Positions 43,565 to 63,828 of a DNA stretch of 64,000 nt are shown here, piece by piece (the stretch's first letter is position 1; each line of letters opens with the position of its first letter). The notes under the pieces are model-generated. The model was not told the DNA's origin. It was given only the letters and a program-made list of their open reading frames with translations, and searched no databases. The DNA lies in the NCBI GenBank assembly GCA_963727485.1, contig CAVSGM010000002.1, forward strand, positions 1,472,001 to 1,536,000, given 5' to 3'. Source of the DNA: an uncultured delta proteobacterium. Lineage in GTDB: Bacteria > Myxococcota > Myxococcia > SLRQ01. The translations under genes were made by a program, and so were the position numbers.

Positions 43565-44374
43565 ATGACCGGTGACGCCCGGGCCGCCCGGCGGCGGACG
43601 CGGCTCGCCCTCCGGGCGACCTGGCAGCCGCTCCTCCAACGGTTCCGGGTCCACGAGGGGCTGCTCCTGGCGGCGCTGGCCTCCCTGGTGGTGGTCGCCC
43701 GCCCGGCGCCGGGGCGCGGCCTCGCCGAGCTGGTCCTCGGGGTCTGGCTCCTGGCCCTCCTCTACGCCTACAACGACGTCCACGACGCCCCCCGGGACAC
43801 CGGCAATCCCAAGAAGGACCCGGCCCTGGTGGCGCACCTCTACGCCGACCGGGCCTGGCTTCGGGGCTGGATCCTGGCCCAGACTGGGGCGGTGGCCCTC
43901 CTCGCCGGGACTCTCCTCGGGACCGGGGCCCTCGTGGCCACCGCCGCCGTCGCCGGCCTCAACGTCGCCTACTCCCATCGCCTCAAGGGCGTCCCGGTCC
44001 TCGACGTCCTCACCGTGGGCCTCTGGGGCGCGGCCTACGTGACCCTGGTCCAGCCGCCGGTGGCCCTCTGCGTGCTCATCGGCGCCATGACCGCCATCAG
44101 CCACGTGTTCCAGACCCTCCGGGACCGGCGGGCCGACGCCGACGGAGGCGTGCACACAGTGGGGCAGCTCACGGAGGGCGGGGTGGCGATGGTGCTCCTC
44201 GGCGCGTCGGCGGTGCTCTTCGCGGTCCTCCTCCCGCTGGGCTGGCCCCTGGCGGCGAGCGCCGCCTTCCCCCTGGTCGCCTGGTGGGCCATCCGGCGAC
44301 CGGTGCCCGCCTGGCTCGTGGTGAAGGCCTACTTCGCCGCCGTGTGGGTGGTGGCCCTGGTGGTCCACCCGTGA
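43565..44374 (+). CDS. UbiA family prenyltransferase
   Basis: YAYNDVHDAPRD, YS-x-x-LK, RDRRAD...G, multiple TM helices. Confidence 0.82.
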   Translation: MTGDARAARRRTRLALRATWQPLLQRFRVHEGLLLAALASLVVVARPAPGRGLAELVLGVWLLALLYAYNDVHDAPRDTGNPKKDPALVAHLYADRAWLRGWILAQTGAVALLAGTLLGTGALVATAAVAGLNVAYSHRLKGVPVLDVLTVGLWGAAYVTLVQPPVALCVLIGAMTAISHVFQTLRDRRADADGGVHTVGQLTEGGVAMVLLGASAVLFAVLLPLGWPLAASAAFPLVAWWAIRRPVPAWLVVKAYFAAVWVVALVVHP

Positions 44375-45378
44375 ACCTCCCCGACCGGGTCCGCCTCGCC
44401 TCGGCGTTCGGCCGCAGCCTGGTCGCCCACCGGCTGCACCTGCGCCCCCGGCCCTTCTCCGCCTCGGTGGCCGTCACCAACCGCTGCAACCTCCACTGCC
44501 GCTACTGCGACTTCCCCCGCCTCGACCGGCGACAGCTCGACACCGCCGACCTCACCACCGTCTTCGGCCGCCTCGCCCGGCTGGGGGTGCGGCGCCTGGG
44601 GCTGGTCGGCGGCGAGCCCCTGCTCCGGGCCGACCTCCCGGACCTCATCGCCGCCGCCCGGGACCTGGGCCTGTTCGTGAGCGTCAACACCAACCTCACC
44701 CTCCACGCGCGCCACCCCGAGCGCCTCCGGGGCGCCCAGCTGGTGTTCACCAGCCTCGACGGGGGCCCGGACGCCCACCGGGCCAACCGCGGTGACGAGG
44801 GGCCCGAGCCGGTCCTCGCCGCCATCCGCCGCCTCCGGGCCCGGGGGGTGCCGGTGATCGCCATCTTCGTGGTCACCGCCCACAACCTCGACGACGCCGG
44901 GGCCGTGCTCGACCTCGCCGCCGCCGAGGGCTTCCGGGTCCACTTCCAGCCCCGGTGCGAGGGGGCCCCGGTGGTGCGCGCCGACCCGGGCCTCGACGCG
45001 GACTCGGCGGCGCTCCGGGCGCTGTTCCGCGACCTCGCCGTCGCCCGGGCCCGGGGGGCGCCGGTGGCGAGCTCCGCCGGGTACCTCGCGTCCCTCGCCC
45101 GCTGGGAGGACTTCCGGGTGAGCGCCGTGGACGACCCCACCACCCGCTGCGCCGCCGGCACCGGCTTCCTCTTCGTGGATCCCCAGGGGCGGGCCTGGCC
45201 CTGCGCCTTCACCCAGGGCGTGGCCGAGCCCGTGGACCTCCTCCGCCAGGACTGGGCCCGGGCCTTCTCCGGTGACACCCCGTGCACCCGGTGCGCCGTG
45301 GGCCCCTACGTCGAGTTCAACGCCCTCTTCCGGCACCCGGCGGCCACCTCCCTGGCCCTCGCCCGCAGCTATGGCTAG
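44371..45378 (+). CDS. Radical SAM protein with a SPASM/twitch-like C-terminus
   Basis: CNLHCRYC, GGEPLLR, SLDG, CAAG...VDPQG...PC...CTRC. Confidence 0.9.
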   Translation: MNLPDRVRLASAFGRSLVAHRLHLRPRPFSASVAVTNRCNLHCRYCDFPRLDRRQLDTADLTTVFGRLARLGVRRLGLVGGEPLLRADLPDLIAAARDLGLFVSVNTNLTLHARHPERLRGAQLVFTSLDGGPDAHRANRGDEGPEPVLAAIRRLRARGVPVIAIFVVTAHNLDDAGAVLDLAAAEGFRVHFQPRCEGAPVVRADPGLDADSAALRALFRDLAVARARGAPVASSAGYLASLARWEDFRVSAVDDPTTRCAAGTGFLFVDPQGRAWPCAFTQGVAEPVDLLRQDWARAFSGDTPCTRCAVGPYVEFNALFRHPAATSLALARSYG

Positions 45379-47149
45379 CCGTCGGCGGTGGCCGGGTGCC
45401 GGGGAGATCGCGGTGGGGCTGGTGGCCGCCTCGGTGGTCGCCCTCGCCCTCGTGGTGTTCACCCGGGAGGCCGCCCGGCTCTCCCCGGCCCTGGCGAAGA
45501 TCCTGGTGCAGCAGCTCCAGGTGGCCCTGGGGGACGGGCACCTCTTCGCGCACCCCGGCGACCCCCTGCCCCTGCCCCGGGCCCTGCAGATGCTGTGGCT
45601 GGGTCCGGCGACCACCGCCGAGGCCCTCTTCACCCTGGCCCTCCGCCGCCTCACCGGGACGGTGGCGGCCCTCACCGCCCAGCGCGCCTTCCAGGTGGCG
45701 CTCTTCGAGACCGGGGCCCCGCTCCTCCTCGTCGCCGCCCGGCGCCGGGGGCTGCCCCGGGGCGAGGCCATGGCCCTGGCCCTGCTCTACGCCCTCCAGC
45801 CGGTGGTGCTCACCAAGCTCGCCTGGGACACGGTCCTCCCGGCGGCGCCGCTGGTGATCCTCGCCTACCTCGGGTGGCTGCAGCGGCGCTTCGGCCACTT
45901 CGCCGCCGGGCTCCTCCTCGCCGCCGCCACCCACCCCTTCGCCTTCGCCGGCGCCGCCCTGCTCACCGTTTGGCTGGGCCGGGGCGAGACCGATCCCCGG
46001 GCCCGCCGCGCCCTGGGGCGCACCCGCGTCGCCCTCCTCGCCCTGGGCACGGTCACCGTCTCGGGGGTGGTGCTCCCCGGCCTCCTCTGGCCCCACGGCC
46101 CGACCCTCGCCGGGGCCCTGACCCACGGCCGGACCCTCGTGGGCCTGGTCCGGGAGCCAGCGGGGCGCCTCCTGGGGATCCTCGGCACCAACGCCGCGGC
46201 CATCGGTCTGCTGGTCCTCGCCGCCGGCGGCGGGCTCCTGCGCCGGCCGGGGATGATCTGGGTGGTCGCCCTCGACCTCGGCTACGCCCTCTTCTCCTAC
46301 CAGGGACTCGACCACGGTCTGGTCGGCGCCACCTTCGGGCTGCTGGTGGTCCTGTGCGTCGAGGCCGCCGCCACCCGCCCGGGGCCCGGCGTCCGGTGGC
46401 TCCTCGGGGCCGGGGCGCTGGCGGTGGCGGTGGGCTGGGGCGTCGCCGGGCCCCGGAGCCTCCTCGCCCAGCTGGGCGATCCCGCGCCGCCCCCGGCGCT
46501 CGCCGAGCTCACCGCGGCGCCCCTGCCGGCGCTCGCCGGGCCCTGCGCCGTGGAGGCGACCCTGGTGCCCTACGTCCTCGATCGCTGCCCCGGCGCCCGG
46601 GCCTACGGGGACGGGGCTCAAGGCGATCGGCAAGCCCGGCCCCCGCCGGCGTTCGTCGTGCTGTCGCCGGCGCGCCTCACCGCCCCGGCGGCGGCCTGGC
46701 CCCGGGGGTACCAGGAGCTGCGCCGCCTGGACCGGGACCGCCGGGCGCTGGGGCGGATCCGCGCGGCGATCGCCGCCGGCCACCTGGGGCTGGTCCGGGT
46801 GGCCGGACCCCTGGTGGTCCTGGGCCGGGACCGGGGGCGGCCGGTGCCCCCCTGGATCCCCGCGGCCCTCGACCGGGTCCTCCAGACGGCGCCGGCAGAT
46901 CGGGCCGCCGGCCCACCTCCCGGGCGCGGGCCCGAGGTCACTCGCCGAACACCCGCTCCAGGCGCACCGCCGCGGGCAGGGTCCGCACCGCCTCCATCAG
47001 GGGCCCCCGCGCCCGGCGCCAGAACGCCGCCAGGGGCTCCCCGGGCTCGGTGTCCAGACGCCGTACCGCCGAGGCCAGCTGCCGCAGGGCCGGGGCCAGC
47101 TCCGGCACCGAGATCGGGTCGTTGTCGTAGCGCGGCGCCAGGCAGTTGA
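45371..47149 (+). CDS. Polytopic membrane protein (3' end uncertain)
   Basis: About ten hydrophobic segments; overlaps the rSAM stop; tail overlaps the convergent halogenase by about 210 nt. Confidence 0.55.
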   Translation: MASRRRWPGAGEIAVGLVAASVVALALVVFTREAARLSPALAKILVQQLQVALGDGHLFAHPGDPLPLPRALQMLWLGPATTAEALFTLALRRLTGTVAALTAQRAFQVALFETGAPLLLVAARRRGLPRGEAMALALLYALQPVVLTKLAWDTVLPAAPLVILAYLGWLQRRFGHFAAGLLLAAATHPFAFAGAALLTVWLGRGETDPRARRALGRTRVALLALGTVTVSGVVLPGLLWPHGPTLAGALTHGRTLVGLVREPAGRLLGILGTNAAAIGLLVLAAGGGLLRRPGMIWVVALDLGYALFSYQGLDHGLVGATFGLLVVLCVEAAATRPGPGVRWLLGAGALAVAVGWGVAGPRSLLAQLGDPAPPPALAELTAAPLPALAGPCAVEATLVPYVLDRCPGARAYGDGAQGDRQARPPPAFVVLSPARLTAPAAAWPRGYQELRRLDRDRRALGRIRAAIAAGHLGLVRVAGPLVVLGRDRGRPVPPWIPAALDRVLQTAPADRAAGPPPGRGPEVTRRTPAPGAPPRAGSAPPPSGAPAPGARTPPGAPRARCPDAVPPRPAAAGPGPAPAPRSGRCRSAAPGS

Positions 47150-48561
47150 GCTGCCAGTTCTCGGTCTGGAAGAGGCTGGGGGCGGCCGGGTCCCTCGGCT
47201 CCACCAGGAAGAAGAGGCTCGGGGGCCTCGGCCCGTCCTGGTGGCGCAGGTGGAGACAGAGGAAGCCCAGCTCGTCGGGGTCGGCGTCGTCGAGGGCCGG
47301 CCGATCGTCGCCGGTGGCCCGGGCCGCCCGGCTCCGGTGGTCGGCGGTGCGCCGCTCGTCGAGGGCGAGGTTGCGGACCAGGCCGCTGGTGAGCACCAGG
47401 AACGCCTTCTGGGGATCGAGGCGCGGGGCCGTCTCCACCAGGATCTCCTTGGACTCCCAGAAGTAGTCCTCCTTGGCGAGGTTCTGCTGGTAGAAGAACC
47501 GCACGATCCGGGTGAGGTCGTCGAAGAGCGCGCGGTGGGCGGTCTCGTACTCGGCCACCAGCGCCGCCTCCTCGGCCCCCTCGCGCACCAGCCGCACCGC
47601 CGCCCCGGCCACGTGCCAGCCGGCGTGCATCGCCAGGAACACCCCCTGGGAGAGGACCGGGTCGAGGAAGCCCGCCGCGTCACCGGCGAGGAAGTACCCG
47701 GGGCCGGCCACCTGGCGCATCCGGTAGCTCCAGTCCCGCTCGTGGCGGACCTCGGTGACCCGCTCGGCGCCGGGCCCCAGCACCGCCCGGATCTCCTCGC
47801 ACCCCGCCACCGCCGCCTCGAAGCGCCGGGTGCGCTCGGCCTTGTCGGCCTTGTCGTCCTCGTCGAGGCGGACCACGCCCACCGAGGCCGTCTCCGGGCC
47901 CAGGGGGAAGTGCCACAGCCAGTGGCTGCGATCGGCGGCGAAGAGGGCCTGGCGCGCCCGGGGATGGGGCTGGCGGCCGCGGCTGCGGTAGTGGGCCCAG
48001 GCGGCCTGGTGCTCGAGGCCGGGGATGGGCTCGCGGAGCTTCAGGTCCCGGGCCACCACCGCGGCCTGGCCGGTGGCGTCGAGGGTGACCCGCGCCGCCA
48101 CGGTGGTTTCGCCCCCGCCGGCGGGGTCGGCGATCCGGGCGCCCTGGAGGCGGGGGCCGTCCCAGAGCAGGCGGGTGGCCACCGCCCGCTCCCGGACCTC
48201 GGCGCCGGCCCGGCGGGCGGCCTCGAAGAGGATGGCGTCGAACCGCGACCGCTCCACGAACCAGGCGTGGTCGTAGGCCTCGGTCTCCTCGAACCACAGG
48301 TCCCACCGGGGGGTGCGCCCCCAGCGCAGGTGGGTGGAGCCCGACTTGCGCTCGAAGGCGGCCTCCACCTCGGCCAACACCCCCAGCTCGTCGAGGATCG
48401 GCACCACCCCGGGCAGGAGGCTCTCGCCCACGTGGGTGCGGGGGTGCCGCCGGGCCTCGACCAGCACCACCCGGAGGCCGGCGCGGGCGGCGAGGGTGGC
48501 GGCGGTGGACCCGGCGGGACCGCCGCCGAGGACCAGGAGAATCGACCGGGGCCCCGCTCAT
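46938..48561 (-). CDS. Flavin-dependent halogenase 1 with a C-terminal accessory domain, +1 frameshift near 48541
   Basis: Corrected N-terminus MSGAPVDLLVLGGGPAGS, HVGESLLP, candidate catalytic Lys (FERKSG), WLWHFP, GDAAGFLDPVLSQG. Confidence 0.85.
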
Positions 48562-50458
48562 CGCCGGGGGGCCCCGGCCGCGAGGAGGGCGGCCAGCGGC
48601 CCGGCCACCGAGGCGAGCAACCGGTCGAGGCGTCCCAGGTCCTCACCGTCGAGATGCTGGCCCTCGTAGGCCGCGGACATCCCCTCCACCTCCTGGTAGC
48701 AGGGGCGGCCGCCGCCGTCCCCGCGCCAGAGGACCACTGCCAAGCGTCCCTGGGGGGCCACCAGCTCGAGGCGGACCTCGGCGTCGTCCACCCGGCCGGC
48801 GGCGGCGAGGACCCAGGCCCCGCCGGTGGCCGTCTCGGTGGCCTCGGAGAGGCGATCCAGGGCGGGGGTGGAAAGCGGCGTCGAGGCCGGGGCCCCGGAG
48901 GTCGCGCCTCCCGGCGCCCCGGCGTCGTGGGCCGCGTCGGGGGCGGGGGCCTCGGGCGTGGGGGGCGGCGCCGGCCAGGGGCCCTGGACCCGGACCCGGG
49001 CCACGGCGTCGCCCGCGGGCACCACCGCCGGCGGCAGGGTCGCCACGGGCCCCCGGTACCGGGCGTAGAGCCGGCCCCATCCCTCGGGCCGGCGCACGGG
49101 GTGGGTGAAGAGCATCAGCTCAGTGTCCAGGTCCACCGAGAGCCGCGCCGGGGCCAGGTTCCACAGGCGCTTGCGCCCCAGGAAGAACACGTCCGGCCAC
49201 CCGGCGTCGAAGTCGAGGACCGAGAGGAGATCCCGGGCCCAGACCTCGAGTCCGCAGGCGAACGCCGTACGGGGATTGGGGGCGGGGGCCTCGGTGAAGG
49301 CGGCCCGGGTTGGGTCGTAGGCGAGGACCCGCGGCGGCAGGGAGGCGTGGTGGAGCACCAGGGCCGCCTGGGGGCGCACCCCCGGCGCCAGAATCCCGCC
49401 CGGCCTGGAGGGCGTGGAGCCCCTTGAAGGTGGTGCGGTTGAACAGGTCCCCGGCCCAGGCCTGGCACCCGGTCTCGAGGCGCGCCCACTCGTCCGCGGT
49501 GAGGGCCGCGTCGCCCGAGAGCGGCCGCGTCCCCATGGGGTTCGCCGGGCGCGGCGCCGGGGCGGCCGGCGACGCCGGCTCGGCGCGGAGGAACGGGGCC
49601 TGGTCCCGCACCGCCACCACCTCGCCCCCGGCCATCACCACCGTCAGCCCCGGGGCCGTCGCCCGCACCGGCTGGCGGAGCCGGGTCCCGACCCGGGTGG
49701 CCACCCGGCCGGGGTCGGCGACGAAGACCGCCTCGCCCAGGGGCCCGAGCGGGCCGGTGGGCCGCAGCCCCTCGCCATTGACCAGGAACTGCGCAGGCCG
49801 GCGCCCGGGGAAGGCCGCAAGGTACTCAGCGACCACCTGCTCGGCCACCGCCCCGTCGGGGTCCTCGTCCCGGGGCAGCCAGGGCCGGAACACCCCCTGG
49901 TCGAGGTCGGGCATCGGCCTCACCCAGACCCCGGGCACGGCAATCTCCCCCAGGACCTCGGCGGCCCAGGCCGGCGGCTGGTGGAGATCCACGGAGGTGA
50001 AGAAGCTGCCGTCGCCCCCGTGGGGCTCGACCACCAGCGGCGCGGTCGCCAGCTCGTTGCCCCCGGTGGGGAGCACCTCGACCGCGGGCGCCAGGGGCCG
50101 GAATCCGCGAATCGCCGAGGTGGCGATCCTCCCCTGGGCGCAGGGCCACCACCTGGAAGCCCAGCTCGGCAACCGCGGCCCGGGCCGCCGCGGAGCTGTG
50201 CGCCGGGAGGTGGATGGGCACCCGACGGTCGAGGAGGGCGAGGCTCGGCAGGTCGAGGTGATCCGGGTGCTCGTGGGAGATCACCACGCCGTCCACCGGC
50301 GGCATCGACGCCAGGTCCAGGTCCCGTCCGGGGTGGAGCGCCATCCGGGTCAGGGGCAGGTGGGCGAGGCCCGGTCGGAGCAGCGGATCGACGAGGAGCC
50401 GGGTGTCGCCGCTGTCGATGAGCCAGCCCTGGTGGCCCAGGGCGGTGACCGTAAACAC
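48558..50458 (-). CDS. Metallo-beta-lactamase-fold protein with a C-terminal accessory domain, two +1 frameshifts (about 50103 and 49393)
   Basis: LGHQG, LLVDP, SHEHPDHLD (HxHxDH); three ORF pieces join by GATTC to GATC corrections. Confidence 0.78.
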
Positions 50459-50574: not shown

Positions 50575-52791
50575 ATGGCGGACACCACCGATCTCGTGGT
50601 CATCGGCGGCGGCCCCGCGGGTGGCCTGGTGGCGGCCCTGGTCCGGCAGCAGGACCCGGACCGCCGGGTGGTGCTCCTCGAGCGGGGACGGTTCCCCCGC
50701 CACCACGTCGGCGAGTCGTCGATCCCCTCGTGGCGGCCGATCCTCGAGCGGGCCGGGGTGCGGGAGAAGGTCGACGCCGCCATCCGCACCCGGAAGGTGG
50801 GCACCATCTTCTGGTGGGGCACCAGCGAGGATCGGACCTGGACCATCGACTTCCGCGACACCCGCACCGGCGGCGCGCCCCCGGCGAGCTACCAGCTCGA
50901 CCGCTCGGTCTTCGACCAGGTGCTCCTGGACCACGCCGCCGAGCTCGGGGCCGAGGTGCACCAGGAGGCCACGGTCACCGCGGTGACGCCCCTGGGCTCC
51001 GGGCGCCACCGGGTCACCTGGCAGGCCGGCGACGAGACCCACCACCTCGAAACCGACTACGTGGTCGACGCCTCGGGACAGGCGAGGCTCCTCGCCCGGC
51101 TCTTCCGCCTGCCCCTGGTGGGCTTCGACGACATGAACAACTTCGCCGTGGTCGGCTACTGGCGGGGGAGCAAGCTCGCCCAGTACGACTGGCCGGTGGC
51201 CGAGCACGAGCGCTGGACCTACATCGCCGCCTCCGACGACGGCTGGGTCTGGCACATCCCCCTCGACGGCGACCTCGTGAGCGTGGGGCTGGTAACCGAC
51301 GGAGACTCCCTGCCCAAGGGGGGCGCCTCCGAGCTCGAGGCCCACTACCTGCGCAACGTCCGCGCCTGCCCCCCGGTGGCGGCGCTCCTCGAGGACGCCA
51401 CCCTCGACCGCCACCCCCTGGCCCCCCAGGCCCTGACCACGGTGCGGGACTGGTCCTATCACTGCGAGGAGGCCTGCGGCCCCGGGTGGTTCGTCGCCGG
51501 CGACGCGGCGGTGTTCGTGGATCCGGTGCTCTCCAGCGGGATGCTACTGGCGGCCAACGGCGCGTCCATGGCCGCCAACGCCCTCCACACCCTGTGGCGC
51601 GACCCGGCGGTGGACCCGGCCCTGCTCCGCCGCAGCTACACCGATACCTACCGGGACATGGCCGGCAGCTACCACCGCCTGGCGCGCATCTGGTACGCCC
51701 GGAACTTCAAGGCCTCCACCTGGCACTGGGAGGCCAAGCGCCAGCGGCTGATGGCCGGGGGCCGCGCCGACGCCGAGACCGACGCCCGCGCGTTCCTCGC
51801 CCTCTGCCTCGGCTCGTTCACCAACCCCCTGGAGGCGGCGATCCGCGGGGATCGGGGAGACCTGCTCCGGCCCGACGCCCGGATCTACGCCGGCCACCTC
51901 TTCGCCGACGACGTCCGCGACAATCCCCTCTACGCCGTCCTCGACGACGCCACCGAGACCGGCGCCACCGAGACCGAGACCCGGGCGGCAATCCGGGCCG
52001 ACACCGCCCGGCAGTGGCAGCGGATGCTCCATGCCCGCCCCCGCCTCAATCACTGCACCTGGGAGACCCGGGAGAGCTACGTCACCGACGGGTACCTCAA
52101 TCACTGGGAGCGGGTGCGGCTCATCGAGGTCCGGGCCCGCGCCGAGGACGACGCCTTCGGGCGGGTGATCCTGCCCTCCCCCGAGGTCGCCCGGGACGGG
52201 GTGCTGCCCTTCCTCGACGGGCGGCGCACCCTCGCCGAGGCGCTGGAGGCGGCGGCCGCGGACACCCCGGTGGGCTCCCAGGCCTACGACGAGCTCCTCG
52301 AGGGCCTCCAGTACCAGATCTTCCAGCTCGACTTCCGCTGCTGGCTCGACGGGGTGGCCGAGGCCCCGCCGGCGCCGACCCCCGAGGCCCTGCCCGCGCC
52401 CCTCGAGGCGGTGCTCCGGGGCGAGACCGGCGGGCCGGCGGCGCGCTTGGAGATCGGGCTGCTGGGAGAGACGGCGACGGTGCGCTTCGAGGACGACTCG
52501 GCGCCCTGGACCCTCACCCGCCTCGACCGCTCGCCCGAGGGCTACCGCTACGCCGCCTCGGCGACCACCGCCTTCGCCTACCGGGGCCGTGACCTGGCCC
52601 CCGAGGCCCGGGCGCGCCTCGACGACCTGGTGGCGGCGCTCCGGCGCCTCGAGGCATCGGACCCGGAGGGCGCGGACGGCCTCTGGCCCCGGATCCTCGG
52701 GCCCCGGGCCGGGGAGGTGGTGGCGCCGGCCGCCGCTGCCGAGCTCCCCGACCTCACCGAGCCGCCCCCGGCCGTCGACGGGGTCGGGTGA
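50575..52791 (+). CDS. Flavin-dependent halogenase 2 with PqqD/RRE-like and accessory C-terminal domains
   Basis: GGGPAG, HVGES, RKVG Lys, GWVWHIP, GDAAVFVDPVLSSG; FLDGRRTLAE in the extension. Confidence 0.88.
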   Translation: MADTTDLVVIGGGPAGGLVAALVRQQDPDRRVVLLERGRFPRHHVGESSIPSWRPILERAGVREKVDAAIRTRKVGTIFWWGTSEDRTWTIDFRDTRTGGAPPASYQLDRSVFDQVLLDHAAELGAEVHQEATVTAVTPLGSGRHRVTWQAGDETHHLETDYVVDASGQARLLARLFRLPLVGFDDMNNFAVVGYWRGSKLAQYDWPVAEHERWTYIAASDDGWVWHIPLDGDLVSVGLVTDGDSLPKGGASELEAHYLRNVRACPPVAALLEDATLDRHPLAPQALTTVRDWSYHCEEACGPGWFVAGDAAVFVDPVLSSGMLLAANGASMAANALHTLWRDPAVDPALLRRSYTDTYRDMAGSYHRLARIWYARNFKASTWHWEAKRQRLMAGGRADAETDARAFLALCLGSFTNPLEAAIRGDRGDLLRPDARIYAGHLFADDVRDNPLYAVLDDATETGATETETRAAIRADTARQWQRMLHARPRLNHCTWETRESYVTDGYLNHWERVRLIEVRARAEDDAFGRVILPSPEVARDGVLPFLDGRRTLAEALEAAAADTPVGSQAYDELLEGLQYQIFQLDFRCWLDGVAEAPPAPTPEALPAPLEAVLRGETGGPAARLEIGLLGETATVRFEDDSAPWTLTRLDRSPEGYRYAASATTAFAYRGRDLAPEARARLDDLVAALRRLEASDPEGADGLWPRILGPRAGEVVAPAAAAELPDLTEPPPAVDGVG

Positions 52792-54647: not shown

Positions 54648-56946
54648 CCTCCAGGGGCAGGCCCAGGGCCGCGCACCGGGCCGAGAGGCGATCCACCGCG
54701 GCGGCGGCGTCGGCGAGGCGGTCGAGGCCGACCGCGTCGAGGGCGACCTCCAGGCGCAGCTGGCCGGCCCCGAGCGTCCGGGCGAGGTCCGCGTAGTCGG
54801 CGACGGCGTCGAGGACACCGGCGGAGAGGGGTAGCCGCAGCTCCAGGCCTTCGAGCCCCGCCGCCGTCAGCGCCCGGATCCCCGCCACCGCCTGGTCGAA
54901 GCCCCCGGGGTCCCGGCTGCAGGCGTCGGCGAGGTCGGCCCGGGGGCCGAAAAGCTTGACGCTGGCCCCGGCGAGGCCCGCGCGCACCGCCGCCTCGGCG
55001 AAGCCGGGCACCGAGAACCGCCGGCCGTTGGTCACCACCGCCACCGTGCGTCGGTCCTCCCCCCGGGCGCGGCGTACCAGGGCCAGGAACCGCGGGTGGA
55101 CCGAGGGCTCGCGGCCGGCGAGGATCACCGGGCGCCCCGTGGTCCGGGCGGCGTCGACCCGGGCGGCGGCGGCGGCCTCGGCGTCGTCGAGCCAGCGGTC
55201 CCGGTGGGCGCAGGTGGGGCAGCCGTTGTTGCAGGCCCCGGCGAAGGCCACCAGGGCGCCGTGGTCGCTGGTGCCGCGGGGGGGTGCGCCTGCCGGGCGC
55301 GCCGGGGACAGGAGGGCGTCGAGGCGGGCCCCGAGGGCGTCGAGGCCGGCGACGACCCGGTCGGCGAGGGCGGGCACCGCCGCCTCGTCGCCGGCGTGCC
55401 GCCGGGCGAAGGCCACCGCGGCGGCGAGCTGCCCGGCCTCGGTCTCGTGGCCCAGGCGATCCCGGAGGCGTCGCGAGAGCCGTAGGCGAGCCGGGTCCCC
55501 GGCTCGAGGAAGCGCCAGGGGTGCTCGGGGTTGTAGCCCTTGCGCCGGCCAGCCCCGGCGTCGCCGTCGTCCCAGTGGTCGAGGAGGGCCCCGTCCCGGC
55601 GCGCGGCGTGGGTGATGGGCAGGTCGTGGTAGAGTCGCAGGCGGTTTCTGCCGAGCTCGTCGAAGAGCTCGCCGAGGCCGTGGCGGCGGAGGCGTCCCAG
55701 GCTCTCGTCGAGGTCGTCGAGGCTGGTCCAGGGGCTCCAGAGGATGAGGCTGTGGCCCCGGGCCCGGGCGTAATCGAAGGCGCCGGGGTGGTCCGCGGCG
55801 AGCTTGCGCATCGCCGCGATGGAGGCGACCAGGGCCTCGGCGTCGAGGCCCTTGTTGTAACGGACGAGCTCCCGATCGCTGAAGCTCTCGAAGCCGGTGA
55901 GGTAGAGCTCCACGGTCTGGCCGGTCTCCTCGGCGGCGGCGATGGCGGCCTCGGCGAGGCGGCGCTGGCGCCCGAAGGCGTCGGCCCGGGCGGCGAAGAG
56001 CCAGCGCACGGGCGGCACCCCCGCGGCCCGGGCCGCCCGGACCAGGTCGCCGAGGTAGCGCAGGGCCGCCTGGTCCCCGAGGACCAGCTCCTCGAGGTCG
56101 GGGGTCCGGTCGGCGAGGTAGCGCGCCTGGTCCACCAGCTCGGCGACCACCTCGGGGGCCGGGCGCTTCTGGTAGTCGCCGCCCATGGCGCAGAAGGCGC
56201 ACCCGAGCCGGGCGATGCCGGCGCCCTCCGGGAGCGCCACCCCGGCGTAGTGGGGGTTCGCCGCGGGGTCCTCGGCGTAGGGGCACCCCACGTCGCCGAA
56301 GAGGGTGCGCCGCACCACCTTCGGCGCCGGCTCGAGGCAGATGACGTCCTGGTCGAGGACCGGGGCGTAGGGCACCGCCGGTGCCGGGTCCGCCGGGGGC
56401 CCGGCCACCACCTCGCCGCCGGCACCCACCACCGTCACGCCCGGCGCCCCCCGGACCTCGGCGCCCCGGGAGAGGCGTTCGACCAGGGCGGCGAAGCCCG
56501 CCTGGAGCTCGGGGATCGTGGGCGTCCGGCGGGTGACGCCGCCCCGGGAGGTCCCCACCGCGAGGCCCACCGCGTAGCGGATCCCCTCGGAGACGTCGAA
56601 GGACTCGCCCCGGGACACCAGGACGCTGGCGGCGCCGGGTCGCCGGCGGAGGTGGGCGGCGATGGGCGCCGGGATCGAGGAGGCAATCGACGACCACGAG
56701 GTCCACCTGGTGGGCCTCGAGCCACTCCTCGAGGCGCCGGGCCACCTCCCGGTCCCGGCCCGGATCCCGGCCGTCGTAGTAGACGCGCACCACCCGGCCC
56801 CGGTGGCCGGCCCGGCGGGCGTCGGCGCACAGGAGGCCCAGCAGGGTGTCGGGGAAGAAGCCGTCGGCGGGCTCGCCGTAGGGGAGCACGAACCCCAGGG
56901 AGAGGGACCGGGTCTCGGCCGGCGTCTCGGTGGCTCGGTGGGTCAT
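54592..56946 (-). CDS. Two-domain radical SAM protein with a split CX27CX2C motif and a C-terminal canonical domain; frameshifts near 56660 and 55488
   Basis: GCPY...GCAFC, GFESFS, YNKG, ILWSPWT; then CNNGCPTC, GREP, VTNGR. Confidence 0.78.
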   Translation of the reverse strand: MTHRATETPAETRSLSLGFVLPYGEPADGFFPDTLLGLLCADARRAGHRGRVVRVYYDGRDPGRDREVARRLEEWLEAHQVDLVVVDCLLDPGAHRRPPPPATRRRQRPGVPGRVLRRLRGDPLRGGPRGGDLPGRRHPPDAHDPRAPGGLRRPGRTPLPGRRGPGGAGRDGGGCRRRGGGRAPGGPGTGGALRPGPRPGRHLPRAGAEGGAAHPLRRRGVPLRRGPRGEPPLRRGGAPGGRRHRPARVRLLRHGRRLPEAPGPRGGRRAGGPGALPRRPDPRPRGAGPRGPGGPALPRRPGPGGPGRGGAARALALRRPGRRLRAPAPPRRGRHRRRRGDRPDRGALPHRLRELQRSGARPLQQGPRRRGPGRLHRGDAQARRGPPRRLRLRPGPGPQPHPLEPLDQPRRPRREPGTPPPPRPRRALRRARQKPPATLPRPAHHPRRAPGRGPPRPLGRRRRRGWPAQGLQPRAPLALPRAGDPARLRLSRRLRDRLGHETEAGQLAAAVAFARRHAGDEAAVPALADRVVAGLDALGARLDALLSPARPAGAPPRGTSDHGALVAFAGACNNGCPTCAHRDRWLDDAEAAAAARVDAARTTGRPVILAGREPSVHPRFLALVRRARGEDRRTVAVVTNGRRFSVPGFAEAAVRAGLAGASVKLFGPRADLADACSRDPGGFDQAVAGIRALTAAGLEGLELRLPLSAGVLDAVADYADLARTLGAGQLRLEVALDAVGLDRLADAAAAVDRLSARCAALGLPLEVSPLAAGTRDLDRLPPSR

Positions 56947-57098
56947 GGGCGCGGCGGGGCCCGGGGACCGGGGCCGACGCGACGACCATAGCCCCGGGGG
57001 CGCGAGGCGAACAACGGGGCCCCGGGCCGCCCTGGCGACCGGTCGCGCGGCCATGCTAGCGTCTCCTCGCCGTCCGCGCCCGGTGGCAGCCGACCCCG

Positions 57099-60000
57099 AT
57101 GACGTCCCCTCCAACCAAGGTCGCGCCCCCCGAGACCGGGGCCGTGGTGGTCCTGGGGAGCACCGGGCGCCTGGGGCCCGCGGTGCTCCGCGCCCTGGCT
57201 CCCCGGCCGGTGCGGGGCCTCTCCCGTCGCCTCCCGGGCCCCGACGAGGCGAAGGCACCGGTCTTCGTCGAGGCCGACCGCCGGGATCCCGAGGCCCTCC
57301 GCCGGCTGGTGGACGGGGCGGCGGCGGTGGTGGACCTCCTCGCCTTCGACGCCGGGGACGCCGACGCCCTCCTGCAGGCGGTGGCCGCCGCCGACGCGCC
57401 GCCAGGCCACCTGGTCTTCGTCTCCTCGGTCGCCGAGCTCGACCGCCCCCGGCCCGGCGCCCCGGCGGGCCCCGACGGCGCCTACGGCCGGGGCAAGCGC
57501 GCCGCCCGGCGGCGCTACGAGGCCGGCTTCCCCGGGACCGTCCACACCCTGGTGCTCCCGCGCCTGGTCGCCGAGGTCGACCCGGGCCTGCGCGACCGGC
57601 CCTACCTGGAGAGCGCGGCCGGGGGACGGGTCCTGGTCGCCGGGGACGGGTCTCAGCGCCAGACCGTGGCCCCGGTGGTCGGGGTCGCCGAGGTCGTCCG
57701 CCGCCTGGTCGACGACCCGAACGCCCTGCCCCCGGGGCCGGTGGTGGTGGGCCCGCCGGCGCCGGTGACGGTGTCCGAGCTGGTCGAGGCCCTCCTCGCC
57801 GGCGCGGGCCTCGAGGTGCCCCTGGCCCGGCACCCGGACCGGGACTGGCGCGGCCCCCACGGCGGCGGCGACGAGAATCCACGACACCTCGGCCCTCGCC
57901 CGGGCCTTCCCCGACCTCGCCTGGCCCGATCCCCGGGCGGTGAGCCGGCGCCACGGCGCCTGGCTGTGCCGGCACCTCCCCGAGGAAGCGCGGCCCCGGG
58001 ACACGGTGCAACAGCGCCAGAAGGCCTTCCGGGGGCACCGGGTGGTCGACGTCCACGGCGTCCGGGAGCCGCCGGCGCTCGCCGAGCCCCGCCCCGAGCT
58101 CGCCGAGCTCGCCGGGTGGCTCTCGCCGGCCTTCTACGTCGACACCGGCCGCCCCTGCAACGCCGCCTGCCTCTACTGCGCGGTCTCCCCCCACGCGGAC
58201 ACCGAGGGGTTCACGCCGCTCTCACGCTTCGACGACATGATCGCCGCCGGAAAGGCCGCCGGGGCCACCCGGGCGATCCTCATCGGCGGCGAGCCCACCA
58301 TCCACCCCCAGCTCGACGCCCTCCTCGGCCTTCTCGCCGACGCCGGGCTCCCCCGGGGGCACGTGATCATGACCAACGGCCTGCGCCTCGCCGACCCGGC
58401 GCGGGTCGACGCCCTGGTGGCCGGGGGCGTCGAGACCTTCCACCTGTCCATCGACACCGCGGACCCGGCGGTCTACCGGCGCCTCGCTCGCGGTGCCGGG
58501 CGTCTTCAGACCCAGCACCAGGCCCTCGACGGCCTCCTCCGGCGCTCGGAGCTGAACGTCTACGTCTACACCTGCGTCTCCCGGATGAACGCCCCGGGGC
58601 TCGGCGACCTCCTCGCCGACGTCGCTCGCCGGGCCGGGGCCGCCGGCCGGGCCCCGCCCCCGGTGGTCCTGGGCTTCGCCAAGCCCATCGGCGACGGCCT
58701 CACCCACGCCGACGCCCTCATCCCGCCCCCGGCCAATCGGGCCCGCATCGCCCGAGCGGCGGTGGCCGAGGCCGACCGCCTCGGGGTCCCCCTCGGCCTG
58801 CGCAACCTCCAGTCGTGCCTCGCCCCGGAGCTGGTGCGCCGCTCGGTGGACTACTACCTCGAGGACTTCTCGGTGGACCTGGAGCGACGGTCCCGGGTCC
58901 CCTACGCCCACGCCGAGTACTGGCGCCAGGGGGCGCCCTGCCACGCCTGCGCCGACCGGGGGGTGTGCACGGGGATCTACGAGGATGACCTCTCGCGGTT
59001 CGGGGCCGACGCCTTCCGGGCCCTCGCCGAGGACCCGGCCCTGGCGTCGCCGGCGCCGGTGCCCCCCGACGCGCCGCGGGAGGCGCCCGCCCGGGAGGAC
59101 GACGCGCCGGCGGTGGGTGACGCGTGGGAGGCGGGTGACGGACCGGAGGTGGACGACGCGCCGGCGGTGGGGATCCTGCGCCTGGCGGCCGCCGGCCACC
59201 GGCGCTTCCTCCTGCTGACCGAGGACCCGGCCGGCGCGCGCCCCTGCCTTGCCCGGGCCGGGGGCTTCGGCCTCTCCTACGAGGGCACCCTCTCGCCCCC
59301 GGCGCTCCGGGACACGGTGGTGTCCCTGGGCCAGCGCTTCGCCGCCGGGCCCCAGGACCCGGGCCCCCTCGACCGGGCCGTCGACCTGCTCCGCCGGGCC
59401 GCCGGCCCGGGCGCCGACCTCACCGAGGTGCGCCGCCTCCCCCGGGGGCAGCGCCTGGCCCGGTGGTCGCCCCGCCGGCGCCACGCGCCCCCGGCGACGG
59501 GCCCAGCCCTCTGGCCCTTCAATCCCGAGGTCCTGGGCCTCGTGGCGGGGACCCGGCGCCTGCTCAAGCGCGAGGTGGCCCGGGGCGACGACGCCGACAC
59601 CGAGACCGCGCGCCTCGTCGCCCGGGGCCTGGCGGTGCGAGCGGTGGACACCGGGGAGGCGGTGGTGCTCCTCGCCGCGCGGGAGGCCGGGGAGGCCGCC
59701 GCCGCCGAGGACGCCGAGCGCGCCCTGGGCCGGGGCGACGACGCCGACGCGGTCCGGCACCTGGGCGAGGCGCTCGGCTACCCGGCCTGCTGCGTGGCGG
59801 CAATCCAGGACGTGGGCAGCCACGACGACCTCACCCTCCGGGCCACCTGCCTCCCGCCCGCGGGCACGGCCCCGGCGCCGCCCCAGACCCAGTGGCTCCT
59901 CCCCGCCCTGGCCCTGGTGTCCCACGTCCCCTGCGGCCTCGACTGCGCGGCCACCTCGGCCCTGGCCAATCGCCTCCTCGCCGCCCTCGACGCCGACTGC

Positions 60001-60279
60001 CCGGGCTTCGCCGACCGCTGGCGGGCCCTGGCCCGGCGCCTCCACCTGGTGGACCGCGAGGGCCGCGCCTTCTCCCTGGCCCTCGAGCCCGGGCCCCTCG
60101 ACGGCGGCCGGGTGGTGGACGCCCTGCACCTGGCCCTCGACCCCTCGGCCCCGGGCGGGGTCCGCCTGGTGCCCCGGGGCGACCTCGCCGGCGCCCGGGT
60201 GGCGCTCTCGGCGGCGGGCGTGGCCCTCCGGGGGGCCGGCGCCCTCGAGGCCGCCCTCGCCGCCGACCACCGGGGGTAG
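57099..60279 (+). CDS. Fusion of an SDR/epimerase-like domain, radical SAM, accessory domain and GYPxCC (DUF483-like) domain; +1 frameshift near 57877
   Basis: GSTGRLG and YGRGK; CNAACLYC, GGEPT, CHAC-x5-CTG; LGYPACC and HVPCGLDC. Confidence 0.82.
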
Positions 60280-60334
60280 GTCCGTCCCGGGGCCGCCTCG
60301 ACACGGGGACGAGCCCTCGGCGAGACTTGGGCCC

Positions 60335-62251
60335 GTGGACGCCCGACGCGTGGTCACCAACGAGACCTGCAACCAGAACTGCGGGTTCTGTGACGCCCGG
60401 CGTCCCACCGACGACCCGGTGCGCTTCGCCGGGCGCGCGGTGGCGACCCGGGTGGTGGCCGCGGCCCGGGACGGGGGCGAGGTGGTGCTCACCGGCGGCG
60501 AGCCCACCCGGCGCCGGGACCTGCCGTCGCTGGTGGCCCTCGCGCGGCGCGCCGGGGCCCGGCGGGTGATCCTGGAGACCAACGCCGCCCTGGTGGACGA
60601 CGCCCGGGCCTCCGCCCTCGCCGGCGCCGGCCTCGACCTCGCCCGGATCCACCTCCCGGCCACCGGCGCCGCCCTCGACGCCCTGACCCGGGACCCGGGA
60701 GGCTTCGAGGCCACCTGCCGGGGCGCCCGGGCCCTCGCCGACGCCGGGGTGGCCCTGGAGGCGGTGGCCCCCCTGGTGGCGGACAACGCCGCGACCCTCC
60801 CCGGGCTCCCGGCGGCCCTGGTGGACACGGGCCTGCCCTTCGGCGCCCTGCTCCTCCACTACCCCACCACCGGTGCCCCGGACCCGGCCACCCTCCTCGC
60901 CGCCGGCCGGGTCCCCGGGATCGTCGGCGCCGTCCTCGAGGCCGCCGCCGGGGTCGGCCTCCCGGTGCGCCTGGTCGGCGGCCTGGCGCGCCCGGGCCCG
61001 GAGGATCCCCGCCCCGGCGACGGCCCCTGGCAGGACGTCGCCCGGGCCCACCTCGCCGGCCACCCCGAGCGCCGCCTCGCCCTCGGGGCGCTCCTGCCCC
61101 CGGAGGCGCTCCCGGCCATCCGCTGCACCCTCCCCTGGCACCGCCTGGAGGTGAGCACCCGGCGCCTCGCCGGCCCCTGCTGCGCCGACTACCAGGCGCA
61201 CCCCCACCTCGCCCGGGCCCCGGACGTCGCCGCCCTCTGGAACGGCCCCGCCCAGCGCGCCTTCCGCCGGGCCCTCGCCGGCGAGGGCCACCCGGCCACC
61301 TGCCTCTCCACCTGCCCCATCCTCGCCGGCGGGAGCCACACCCCGGACCGCTTCGTCCTCCGGGGGGGCACCGCCGCCTTCGTGGACCACCAAATCGAGG
61401 TCGCCGAGGACCTCCTCGCCGGCCGGGAGACGGTCCGCGGCGGCCCCCTGGAGCTCGAGCTCCCGCCCACCACCTTCTGCAACTACGACTGCCTGATGTG
61501 CGAGTGGGGCGACGAGGGAACCCTCGAGGACGAGCTCCCCGCGGCCTTCTACGCCGGCCTCGCGCCGCTGCTCCCCGGGCTCTCGCGCCTCGAGGCCTCC
61601 GGGGGCGAGCCGCTGGCCTCCCCGGCGTTCCGCGCCTTCCTCGAGGGCCTCGACCGGGCCGCCCTCCCGGACCTGGAGGTGGGGCTGGTGACCAACGGCT
61701 CCTACCTGGCGCCGAAGGTCCTCGACGGGCTGGCCCACGTGCCCTTCTCCACCCTCACCGTGAGCCTCAACGCGGCCACCGCCGGGACCTACGAGACGGT
61801 GAACCGGGGCCTGCCCTTCGCCCGCGCCCGCGCGATCCTCGACGACCTCCTCTCCCGGCGCCGGGCGGGCACCCTCGCCTGCGGCATCACCTACAGCCTG
61901 GTGATCCTCGAGGCCAACCGGCACGAGATCCGCGCCTTCGCCGAGCTCGCCCACCGGGACGGGGTGGACGTGCGCTACATGCTCCCGATGTTCGACCGCA
62001 ACGGTCAGAGCATCATGACCCGGCCCGCGTCCATGGCCGCGGCCCTCGCCAATCTCGACGCGGTGGCCGCCGACCTCGAGGCCCGGGGGGACGCCCACGG
62101 CGCGGCCCTGGCCCGGGGCGAGGCGGACGTCCTTCGGGGGCGCCTCGAGGCGGGTCGGTTCACCCCCCTGCCCGACGGCCGCCACTTGGCCACCGAGCCG
62201 GCACCGGGTCCGACGCCGCGCCCGACCGGGGACGGTCCGTCGACGCCATAG
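60335..62251 (+). CDS. Double radical SAM protein with an internal SPASM-like segment
   Basis: CNQNCGFC; CTLPW...PCC...WNG...CLSTCP; CNYDCLMC, GGEPL, VTNG. Confidence 0.88.
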   Translation: MDARRVVTNETCNQNCGFCDARRPTDDPVRFAGRAVATRVVAAARDGGEVVLTGGEPTRRRDLPSLVALARRAGARRVILETNAALVDDARASALAGAGLDLARIHLPATGAALDALTRDPGGFEATCRGARALADAGVALEAVAPLVADNAATLPGLPAALVDTGLPFGALLLHYPTTGAPDPATLLAAGRVPGIVGAVLEAAAGVGLPVRLVGGLARPGPEDPRPGDGPWQDVARAHLAGHPERRLALGALLPPEALPAIRCTLPWHRLEVSTRRLAGPCCADYQAHPHLARAPDVAALWNGPAQRAFRRALAGEGHPATCLSTCPILAGGSHTPDRFVLRGGTAAFVDHQIEVAEDLLAGRETVRGGPLELELPPTTFCNYDCLMCEWGDEGTLEDELPAAFYAGLAPLLPGLSRLEASGGEPLASPAFRAFLEGLDRAALPDLEVGLVTNGSYLAPKVLDGLAHVPFSTLTVSLNAATAGTYETVNRGLPFARARAILDDLLSRRRAGTLACGITYSLVILEANRHEIRAFAELAHRDGVDVRYMLPMFDRNGQSIMTRPASMAAALANLDAVAADLEARGDAHGAALARGEADVLRGRLEAGRFTPLPDGRHLATEPAPGPTPRPTGDGPSTP

Positions 62252-62277
62252 GCGGCGGTGCGCTAGGCTGCCGGGCG

Positions 62278-63828
62278 ATGGAGCCGGACACCCAGGTCGA
62301 GATTCAGCTCGGCCACATGTGCAACAACCGCTGCGTGTTCTGCGTGAGCGGCCAGCGCACCCAGATGCGCATGGCCCGGCCCCTCGAGACCGCCCCCATC
62401 CTCGCGCGCATCGAGGCCGCCCGCGCCGAGGGCCACCGGAAGATCACGCTCCTCGGCGGCGAGCCCACCCTCCAGCCGGGCTTCCTCGAGGTGGTACGCC
62501 GCTGCGTGGCGCTGGGCTTCGAGGAGATCGTCATCTTCACCAACGGGGTGAAGATCGCCCGGGCGGCGTTCATCGACGAGGTGCGCGCCACCGGCGGGCG
62601 CTTCAACTGGCGCATCTCCATCCAGGGCGCCACCAAGGAGAGCCACGAGCGCACCACCGGGCGGCCGGGCTCCTTCGACCGCATCGTCGCCGCCATGGGC
62701 CACCTCGCCGAGCGCGGCGAGAAGCTCACGGTGAACATGTGCGTGGTCGGCTCCAACTACGAGAGCGTCGACCACTTCCCCGACCTCCTCGACCGCTTCG
62801 GGGCCCGGCAGCTCCACCTCGACCTGATGCGCCCCCTCGACGCCGGGGAGCGCACCGACGCCGAGCTCGAGGCGATGATGGTCCCCTACTCGCAGATGGT
62901 CGGGCCCCTGACCCGGATGATCGCGGGCTTCCCCGAAGGCTTCGACGTGAACCTGGGGAACCTGCCGTTCTGCATCGCCCCCGAGCTCGCGCCGTACATC
63001 CACCACGACGGCGAGACCACCTACACGGTGGCCATCGAGGGCGACGACCAGCTCTCGCAGCCCTGGGACAAGTACCAGACCAAGCGCCGGGACAAGTTCC
63101 AGCCGGAGACCTGCCGCCCCTGCCTGTTCCGGGAGAAGTGCAGCGGGGTGTTCGAGCACTACGCGCGCTTCCACGGCACCGCCGAGCTGGTCCCGGTGGA
63201 TGCCGCGCGCCTGCGCCGCGCCGACCCCGGCCTGCGCCTGCTGCCGCTCCATCTCAAGCCGGTGATCGCCGGGCTCAAGGGGTTCCGGCCGCCGCCGCCG
63301 TTCACCGGCCTCGCGGCGAAGGAGACCGCCGACGACGAGGTGACCCTCACCCTCACCGGCCCCGAGCCCCTGGAGGTGGCGCTCCGGCGCCCCGGGGAGG
63401 TTGGGATCTGCGCCTTCGAGGGGATGAGCCTCCACCTCCGGGCGGTCCCCGGCGACCTCGCGGTGGCCCGGGCGGGGCTCGAGGCGCTGGTGGCGGCCCT
63501 GGCGGCCACCTGCGGGGCGCCCGTCCACCCCCTGGGCGACGACGCCCTCGCCCCCCTGCCCCGGACGGTGGCGGCGCGGCTGGGCCGCCTCCGGGGCGCC
63601 GCGCCCTTCCCCGGCCTCGCCTGGACCTCGGTGGCCGCCGCCGGGGGCCGGGTGGAGCTTGGCCTCGCGGATGCCGGCGGCGCCGAGCTGGCCTTCTGGC
63701 TCGCCGAGGAGGCCGGGCGGCCCACCGGGGGCTACCGGGTGGTCTCCGGGGCGCCGGCGCCGGCGGCCATCGAGGGCCTCAAGGCGATGATGGCGGCCCT
63801 GCGGCGGCCCCGCGCCGCGGCCGCCTGA
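62278..63828 (+). CDS. Radical SAM protein (HxsC-like) with C-terminal accessory domains
   Basis: CNNRCVFC, GGEPT, FTNG, NLPFC, CRPC-x5-CSG...Y. Confidence 0.9.
   Translation: MEPDTQVEIQLGHMCNNRCVFCVSGQRTQMRMARPLETAPILARIEAARAEGHRKITLLGGEPTLQPGFLEVVRRCVALGFEEIVIFTNGVKIARAAFIDEVRATGGRFNWRISIQGATKESHERTTGRPGSFDRIVAAMGHLAERGEKLTVNMCVVGSNYESVDHFPDLLDRFGARQLHLDLMRPLDAGERTDAELEAMMVPYSQMVGPLTRMIAGFPEGFDVNLGNLPFCIAPELAPYIHHDGETTYTVAIEGDDQLSQPWDKYQTKRRDKFQPETCRPCLFREKCSGVFEHYARFHGTAELVPVDAARLRRADPGLRLLPLHLKPVIAGLKGFRPPPPFTGLAAKETADDEVTLTLTGPEPLEVALRRPGEVGICAFEGMSLHLRAVPGDLAVARAGLEALVAALAATCGAPVHPLGDDALAPLPRTVAARLGRLRGAAPFPGLAWTSVAAAGGRVELGLADAGGAELAFWLAEEAGRPTGGYRVVSGAPAPAAIEGLKAMMAALRRPRAAAA

Follow-up and report, generated by a model that had tools for sequence, protein, structure and literature searches.

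We analysed a 64,000-nucleotide stretch of DNA (the window) from the genome of an uncultured delta proteobacterium, together with the DNA that follows it on the same contig. A 20-kb segment near the end of the window (43565..63828), containing six radical S-adenosylmethionine (rSAM) genes and two predicted flavin-dependent halogenases (Hal1 and Hal2), is very probably the accessory arm of an expanded HxsA4-type His-Xaa-Ser maturation system. The initial annotation, made from the window sequence, closed the cluster at 63828; it crosses the window end (63829..64000, continuing in L001 and L002) and runs on for ~29 kb, the whole spanning ~50 kb from 43.5 kb of the window. The genome (G000) is 93% complete; other genomes carry G labels and fetched loci L labels, and the window count continues past its end as L001 position + 60000 and L002 position + 80000.

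A substrate gene had been suspected beyond 64 kb, and it was found there. About 20 kb past the window end, the minus strand of L002:3486-3803 encodes a 105-residue HxsA4 precursor that scores 120.5 bits against an NCBIfam cut-off of 55. The precursor consists of a 47-residue leader followed by His-Val-Ser, 18 copies of His-Gly-Ser, a Trp and the stop codon (19 His-x-Ser repeats); aromatic residues of the core are confined to its His and the terminal Trp. Its sole Pfam match is a collagen repeat, with no peptidoglycan-binding domain, and a search of the genome turned up no second precursor of this kind. Beyond it on the same strand lie genes for HxsB (L002:3829-5350; frameshifted, N-terminal piece 378.9 bits vs 370), an HxsD-like protein (L002:5353-5574; 58.4 vs 41) and HxsD (L002:5578-6105; 60.8 vs 50); HxsC4 (L309:405-1469, minus strand; 546.6 vs 500) and an aKG-HExxH hydroxylase (L001:18235-19435, plus strand; 92.6 vs 40, frameshifted) are also encoded past the window. 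The HxsC-type character proposed for the maturases is supported, with a qualification: HxsC4, HxsB and HxsD reach their cut-offs beyond the window, but no rSAM protein of the window does so for HxsC (TIGR03977; best 108.9 vs 267.9) or HxsC4 (NF038332; best 142.7 vs 500), and no TIGR03977 member was found among the proteins scanned. By these profile scores the window rSAMs are distant paralogs of the HxsC/HxsC4 families.

The rSAM density at the cluster exceeds chance: 15 of the 33 matches of a stricter rSAM motif in coding-like open reading frames (ORFs) genome-wide fall in the two 50-kb bins of the cluster. Listing the ORFs, calling genes from codon usage and scanning for families bore out the initial inventory of the window. 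All nine cluster motifs reported for the six window genes are present once each, in a coding frame, between 43.5 and 64 kb (CNLHCRYC 44485+, CNQNCPFC 52830+, CNQACTFC 53772+, CX27CX2C 56285-, CNNGCPTC 55233-, CNAACLYC 58156+, CNQNCGFC 60368+, CNYDCLMC 61478+ and CNNRCVFC 62320+). Eight rSAM pieces, double proteins counted as two domains, exceed the Pfam Radical_SAM cut-off; the CX27CX2C piece falls under it (17.3 vs 29.5 bits). Four CxxCx5CxG tails occur in the window. With seven more rSAM genes past the window end, the locus holds 13 rSAM genes carrying 16 canonical motifs and one atypical motif (17 rSAM domains). The G+C content of the arm (74-79%) is close to that of most of the window. As annotated, no nonribosomal peptide synthetase (NRPS), polyketide synthase (PKS) or carrier protein was detected in the window; the nearest carrier-protein or ketosynthase domain lies ~100 kb beyond it, and the genome, which is 93% complete, yielded no NRPS condensation domain. 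Having no carrier, condensation or ketosynthase gene, the cluster does not qualify as an NRPS/PKS halogenated pathway.

Hal1 (46938..48561, minus strand) and Hal2 (50575..52791, plus strand) are predicted to be flavin-dependent halogenases from their motifs and from sequence and fold matches. Both pass PF04820 (97 and 103 bits vs 21), in line with the initial call of two halogenases dependent on flavin adenine dinucleotide. Their top sequence and fold matches are FasV, CmlS, CndH and PltA (Foldseek E 6e-32 to 1e-26), with 25-33% identity to the nearest solved halogenases. Scores against the NCBIfam CmlS model are 183-204 (cut-off 900), and the QhpG, LodB and GoxB cut-offs are not reached (148-150 vs 240, 75-90 vs 400 and 80-86 vs 400). 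The aligned Lys of flavin halogenases is catalytic. In an alignment of the Hal2 family, which comprises ~75 full-length proteins, a Lys aligns with that of FasV, CmlS and CndH in 51 of 52 rows and Fx[DE]PxxxxG is kept in 52 of 52. Both proteins carry the flavin-binding motif, the Lys and the two halogenase motifs (WxWxIP-type and Fx[DE]PxxSxG, as given in the accessible text of PMC8407142): the match of Hal2 is exact (K74, WVWHIP, FVDPVLSSG), while Hal1, with FLDPVLSQG, reads WLWHFP, so that the WxWxIP signature attributed to this pair stands for Hal2 only. An AlphaFold model of Hal2 (pLDDT 90) has two extra domains, a winged-helix-like domain and a last domain of four strands followed by helices; a frameshift falls right after the start of Hal1. 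A literature search for the FasV structure 8ZOP returned nothing relevant.

HxsA4 scored above its cut-off in 31 of 401 genomes of the phylum (not every match was inspected by eye); the surroundings were fetched for 17 of the 30 other than G000, giving 18 genomes with G000. All 19 precursors in these 18 genomes, which were selected by hidden Markov model, end in His-Gly-Ser-Trp-stop. The same ending occurs in 77 of 77 members of a wider set, mostly selected on that ending and so not independent.

Homologs of the window genes co-occur in other genomes, a pattern whose absence the initial annotation had named as grounds for rejection, and intact orthologs exist in other HxsA4 loci. The double HxsC-like rSAM (52788..54647, plus strand) has orthologs of 50-51% identity in the HxsA4 loci of G348, G229, G436 and G412; rS6, an HxsC-like rSAM with a further C-terminal domain (62278..63828, plus strand), has orthologs of 50-54% in G332 (54%), G416 and G414; and the double rSAM with an internal twitch-like domain (60332..62251, plus strand) has orthologs of 36-37% in the loci of G229, G332 and G436. 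An atypical rSAM (CX27CX2C), which seems to form a fusion with an HxsC-like rSAM (CNNGCPTC) in a gene broken by two frameshifts (54592..56946, minus strand), has orthologs of 30-35% in the HxsA4 loci of three genomes. These retain the odd motif as CX24-25CX2C; the N-terminus resembles a B12-binding domain (by eye only), and the Atlas neighbours are radical SAM clusters.

The UbiA, metallo-beta-lactamase (MBL)-fold and membrane protein genes named initially are all present. A UbiA-family prenyltransferase of a divergent subfamily (43565..44374, plus strand; PF01040 39.6 bits vs 34.2; six homologs found) opens a coupled three-gene run that continues with rSAM1 (CNLHCRYC; 44371..45378, plus strand) and a polytopic membrane protein (45371..46930, plus strand). 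Orthologs of rSAM1 adjoin a UbiA gene in four other HxsA4 loci (G348, G412, G228 and G417), and in G417 hxsA4, rSAM1 and the UbiA gene form one same-strand run. The membrane protein, whose 3' end is uncertain, weakly resembles DUF2079 (GT-C glycosyltransferase-like; PF09852 E 3e-5, sub-threshold) and has no homolog in the fetched HxsA4 loci. The MBL-fold protein (HEHPDH; 48558..50458, minus strand; PF12706 at its N-terminus) is one gene in three pieces separated by two frameshifts, and its G412 ortholog aligns across all three. The remaining rSAM gene of the window (57099..60279, plus strand; frameshift at 57876) joins an NAD-epimerase-like domain to an rSAM domain (CNAACLYC) and a DUF483-like C-terminus.

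Halogenases recur near HxsA4 precursors. A search with Hal2 matched 15 of the 401 genomes at E <= 1e-40, G000 included; the best match (G348, 40%) is 33 kb away from HxsA4, and its neighbours include genes for MBL, rSAM1 and UbiA and a pair of WelO5-type proteins. A PF04820 gene lies no more than 50 kb from the precursor in 2 of 30 genomes (set 1) and 3 of 50 (set 2, for which 80 loci were fetched out of at least 121 matches and the 50 longest contigs used), the sets overlapping by at least two genomes. The total is 5 of ~78 other genomes, where rough uniform placement would give ~0.6 (0.11 + 0.50). Halogenases linked to the system appear to fall in five separate clades of a quick tree (SH-aLRT branch support only), and another HxsA4 locus carries a classical Trp halogenase (385 bits). 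In G413 a halogenase lies 15 kb from an HxsC4 gene at its cut-off, yet 0.5 Mb from HxsA4. Two cultured carriers of HxsA4, Nannocystis exedens DSM 71 and Chondromyces apiculatus DSM 436, had no halogenase in the regions fetched, and protein P0103 of Polyangium jinanense clusters with the G348 halogenase in the tree. Hits from a metagenome scan were for the most part generic halogenases, with 4 of 78 loci belonging to the Hal2 family and two of these having useful flanks. Locus L224 encodes a full-length Hal2 ortholog 8 kb from HxsC4 (533 vs 500) and an HExxH gene; L225 has rSAM neighbours, but no HxsC4 or HxsA4 within 12 kb, and the other 74 loci gave no HxsC4 match. Also seen in passing were two Fe/2-oxoglutarate proteins of the WelO5 family in the same HxsA4 locus of G348 (L023:10158-10976, L024:6462-7280) and also in G412, and a further flavoprotein with a weak halogenase match between DUF483 and HxsC4 (L224:16894-18483).

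A ~100-residue domain appears, from profile comparisons, to be common to Hal1, Hal2, rS6 and a protein with a Tat-like (twin-arginine translocation) signal (L002:599-1180, plus strand). Iterated profiles connect the C-terminal Hal2 segment (residues 600-720), the Hal1 and rS6 tails and the Tat-signal protein through intermediate rSAMs of other HxsA4 loci. Among 7,018 coding-like ORFs in G000, a pooled profile matched six: five seeds, one of which lies upstream of an rSAM motif on another contig, and a single new match, inside the cluster. With 11 candidates scored per genome, the domain occurs in 20 of the 401 genomes, 19 of them HxsA4-positive, as are five of the six that contributed no seed. 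A model of the Tat-protein copy (pLDDT 94.5) has the same order of elements as the last domain of Hal2, and the family numbers 1,224 representatives at E <= 0.001 (clusters at 50% identity). The profile found no match in the MBL C-terminus, a second rS6 tail or a small ORF just past the window end, where further copies had been expected; a Hal2-only profile (10 of 25 segments searched) drew two weak ORFs outside the cluster (E 6e-4 and 8e-3), neither matched by the pooled profile. No Pfam family is common to 44 members, Foldseek gave no match at E <= 0.001, Atlas matches were low-score unnamed clusters only, and the best comparison with the PDB (VIA, Z 5.9, root-mean-square deviation 4.0, 89 aligned) is at a level typical of common arrangements; these missing matches do not establish a new fold. 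The domain may serve in recruitment.

Several observations weigh against the explanation proposed below, in which the arm decorates the HxsA4 peptide. Most HxsA4 genomes have no halogenase near the precursor, and 25 of 30 and 26 of 50 genomes have no PF04820 match at all at the thresholds used. Near-identical gene sets occur in G412 and G348 and again in G436 and G229; since two positive pairs are close kin, the five co-locations amount to about three lineages besides G000. Hal1 and Hal2 orthologs stand in tandem in G430 on a contig other than that of HxsA4, and a related halogenase of G228 is 2.9 Mb from HxsA4. No PF01613 flavin reductase was found in the genome, and CmlS, CndH and PltA act on small or carrier-bound substrates, according to the part of PMC8407142 available. 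No orthology is detectable between the window UbiA and the other UbiA proteins linked to rSAM1. Compared directly with the alignment of the shared domain, the Hal2-family profile matches weakly (probability 15%, E 0.0017), so the halogenase copies of the domain are probable, not certain. Finally, the E. coli effector of the related HXS module has a peptidoglycan-binding domain, whereas HxsA4 here is leader and repeats only.

Our best overall explanation, held with reasonable confidence, is that this arm of the HxsA4 system decorates the modified peptide. HxsB, with HxsD and the HxsC-like enzymes, would act on the leader-bearing precursor and modify its His-Gly-Ser repeats by radical cross-links, or by desaturation plus methylation, and the HExxH enzyme would add beta-hydroxyls to them. 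Decoration by lineage-specific enzymes might follow, on the scaffold itself or on fragments cleaved from it: Hal1 and Hal2 could place chlorine or bromine on His rings or on the terminal Trp, which is invariant, and the UbiA/rSAM1 pair could add a polyprenyl unit or supply a lipid-linked donor to GT-C proteins. The shared domain would bring enzymes to the substrate or to one another, and the product would be exported by a Tat or ATP-binding cassette (ABC) route to act at the cell envelope, possibly in defence. The initial expectation of a heavily tailored, halogenated peptide has gained a precursor and an Hxs core; for its halogenation we infer, with the chances slightly in favour, that Hal1 and Hal2 act on HxsA4-derived material. 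More tentatively, and at somewhat less than even chances, HxsA4 systems may be very large mix-and-match ribosomal assembly lines with up to 17 rSAM domains, which have repeatedly recruited halogenating, prenylating, carbamoylating and reducing enzymes, many docking through the 100-residue domain, Hal1 and Hal2 being CmlS-type halogenases acting on peptidyl histidine. We know of no precedent for a CmlS-type halogenase acting on peptidyl histidine. An anti-phage role of this locus, suggested from homology alone, is rather doubtful; PADLOC, run on 38 cluster and flank proteins, gave partial generic matches only, to models of viperin, methyltransferase and PDC-M51A.

The halogenases, UbiA and MBL enzyme might instead make a separate halogenated, prenylated small molecule or lipid, co-located with HxsA4 but not derived from it. 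The nearest solved relatives (FasV, CmlS, CndH and PltA) favour such a product, as do the lipid genes repeatedly seen close to linked halogenases (fatty-acid desaturases, a polyprenyl synthase, a squalene cyclase and acyltransferases), the detached halogenase modules of G228 and G430, and three satellite rSAM genes beside an iterative PKS and an acyl carrier protein (ACP; C2:393-417 kb). We nevertheless consider it unlikely: the cluster has no carrier or ketosynthase domain, the satellite PKS proteins match none of 170 HxsA4-selected loci (3.0 Mb), so that the PKS link is not conserved, and the C-terminal domain of both halogenases is matched by a profile of Hxs-linked proteins. The invariant terminal Trp of HxsA4 raises another prospect, that Hal1 and Hal2 are QhpG/GoxB-like flavin monooxygenases hydroxylating that residue on an rSAM-modified peptide. 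QhpG is their second-best NCBIfam match (148-150 bits); in the accessible text of PMC7876137 it dihydroxylates Trp of a cross-linked polypeptide, has CmlS as its closest structure and possesses Trp181/Trp183 and a winged-helix domain. The score is nonetheless under both the QhpG cut-off and the CmlS score, the halogenase Lys and Fx[DE]PxxxxG are kept across the Hal2 family, the fold matches listed are halogenases and one uncharacterised flavoprotein, and other HxsA4 loci carry the classical Trp halogenase or WelO5-type proteins, all of which makes monooxygenase activity quite improbable.

There is a slender chance that the arm decorates a cell-surface protein or glycoconjugate, such as the large secreted protein that neighbours many HxsA4 loci, with UbiA making a lipid-linked sugar donor for GT-C proteins. 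The arm is flanked by GT-C-like membrane genes, a kind also found in the loci of G229 and G283, it includes an epimerase-like domain, and UbiA weakly matches decaprenyl-phosphate phosphoribosyltransferase models (E 2e-4; homolog P0125 6e-8). These phosphoribosyltransferase and DUF2079 matches are, however, under cut-off, and the halogenases and HxsC-like rSAMs would be left unexplained; such a role for the UbiA sub-operon alone may be compatible with decoration of HxsA4. That the locus is a decaying chance pile of paralogs is scarcely credible. Six frameshifts in 20 kb break four window genes (Hal1, MBL, the atypical rSAM fusion and the epimerase-rSAM), but the M16-like peptidase gene next door is also broken, twice, the extra base at 57876 is missing from one short-read contig (depth 4), and intact orthologs stand in other HxsA4 loci. 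Because the neighbouring peptidase-like gene is broken too and the short-read contig lacks the extra base, the frameshifts are likely assembly errors; the short-read contigs span short pieces, one of the six frameshifts is covered among the matches listed, and no RNA data set carrying the sequence was listed.

Past the window, further genes of the cluster on the plus strand encode a PMT_2 membrane protein (L001:4435-6213), the large secreted protein (L001:6403-9537), an rSAM-methyltransferase (L001:9548-11359), an HxsC-like rSAM (L001:11356-13023), two HxsC-like rSAMs (L002:1235-3401), an ABC exporter (L002:6226-8028) and a small ORF with the shared domain (near L002:12570); on the minus strand are an IS91-like remnant (L002:8789-9559) and a double rSAM (L002:10224-12530). 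A Ser/Thr kinase, a PEGA protein and two unassigned genes interrupt the cluster (L001:13136-18174), and genes related to this kinase/PEGA interruption occupy the corresponding position in two relatives from one family with it. Directly upstream of the arm (window 38990-43441) are an ATP-grasp ligase (PF13535 with LAL_C2) and, judged by eye, two M16-like peptidase subunits; one subunit, compared against other HxsA4 loci, had no ortholog there. Further upstream, window 27146-27436 encodes a small exported protein with a Cys-Gly motif (by eye), which we take to resemble metal-binding precursor peptides.

Satellite paralogs of cluster genes occur at four other sites in the genome. Those at L302:10407-19743 and L303 (G000:C2:395-417 kb) are rSAM genes that share 53-62% identity with genes in the HxsA4 loci of G348 and G412 and adjoin the iterative PKS, ACP, hydrolases and a probable glycosyltransferase. 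There is also a second hxsB, intact and scoring 529.9 bits (L304:10825-13229, G000:C1), with an HxsC-like gene and no precursor nearby. Among other HxsA4 loci, those of 6 of the 18 genomes contain nitrogenase-like genes (NifH-like, 252 bits, and NifD/K-like), under all named cut-offs (L008:4763-8803 in G332; also G002, G013, G046, G052, G082 and L072), possibly an unstudied reductase for the peptide product. Carbamoyltransferases also recur (L033:3110-4924 in G229; also G002, G046, G228, G269, G416, G413 and G425), sometimes with GDSL esterases and in G416 with one fused to an rSAM. In one family (L049, L053, L056 and L058; G046, G052, G082 and G031) the precursor has its own twin-arginine-like signal, unlike that of G000, and G421:C7:1155333-1311622 contains six precursor-type endings in 156 kb, four of which share identical DNA over 33 matched bases.

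The core of this system is catalogued: NCBIfam families HxsA4 (NF038313), HxsC4 (NF038332), HxsD-like (NF038315), HxsB (TIGR03978) and HxsD (TIGR03976) all pass here. For that reason, 'undescribed' in the initial annotation applies to the accessory arm and its chemistry, for which no description was found; the NCBIfam Hxs families do not extend to the other eleven rSAM genes, nor to the halogenases, UbiA, the MBL protein or the shared domain. No study of HxsA4, HxsC4 or halogenated Hxs peptides was found in the open literature, although subscription papers and supplements could describe such clusters, and PMC13445942 makes no mention of Hxs or rSAM. In the branch represented by this locus, a very simple repeat peptide is accompanied by 13 rSAM genes and two halogenases. 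With a substrate named, together with candidate sites (19 His and one terminal Trp) and an isotope read-out, Hxs enzyme function becomes directly testable; the locus may also be a source of new peptide halogenases and of a new domain for recruitment.

Triceptides (three-residue cyclophanes) are peptides made on the ribosome and modified after translation (RiPPs) with an aromatic-x-x cross-link installed by an rSAM enzyme. The His-x-Ser motif and HExxH partner seen here fit this class, with the cross-link chemistry putative. Cyclophane RiPPs with the aKG-HExxH hydroxylase ChlBH (PMC12636437) and repeat-core rSAM RiPPs such as TvgA/TvgB (PMC9062424), as described in the accessible text, have in common with this locus a repeated short precursor motif, an rSAM/SPASM enzyme and an HExxH hydroxylase; HExxH enzymes hydroxylate His or Asp on cyclophane peptides (PMC12636437, same text), and the tvg cluster has five genes (PMC9062424, likewise), far fewer than the present cluster.

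The closest described relative of the core is E. coli HXS, a four-gene anti-phage module whose radical chemistry is unresolved in the part of PMC13128918 available. There, HxsA is matured by HxsB, HxsC and HxsD, gaining +8 Da (+C/-4H) on its His-x-Ser motif, and mature HxsA blocks phage DNA entry. Both systems have HxsB, HxsD, HxsC-like rSAMs and a His-x-Ser repeat substrate, and export is plausible here. The present locus differs in its 13 rSAM genes, its 105-residue (His-Gly-Ser)n-Trp peptide and its halogenases ('halogen' is absent from the main text of that paper), and its order of hxsD, hxsD-like, hxsB and hxsA4 departs from the canonical hxsD-hxsB-hxsC-hxsA. Hal1 and Hal2 resemble FasV (8ZOP), CmlS, CndH and PltA in fold, aligned Lys and tunnel motif, and differ from them in having no carrier protein or PKS nearby, an extra C-terminal domain and 25-33% sequence identity.

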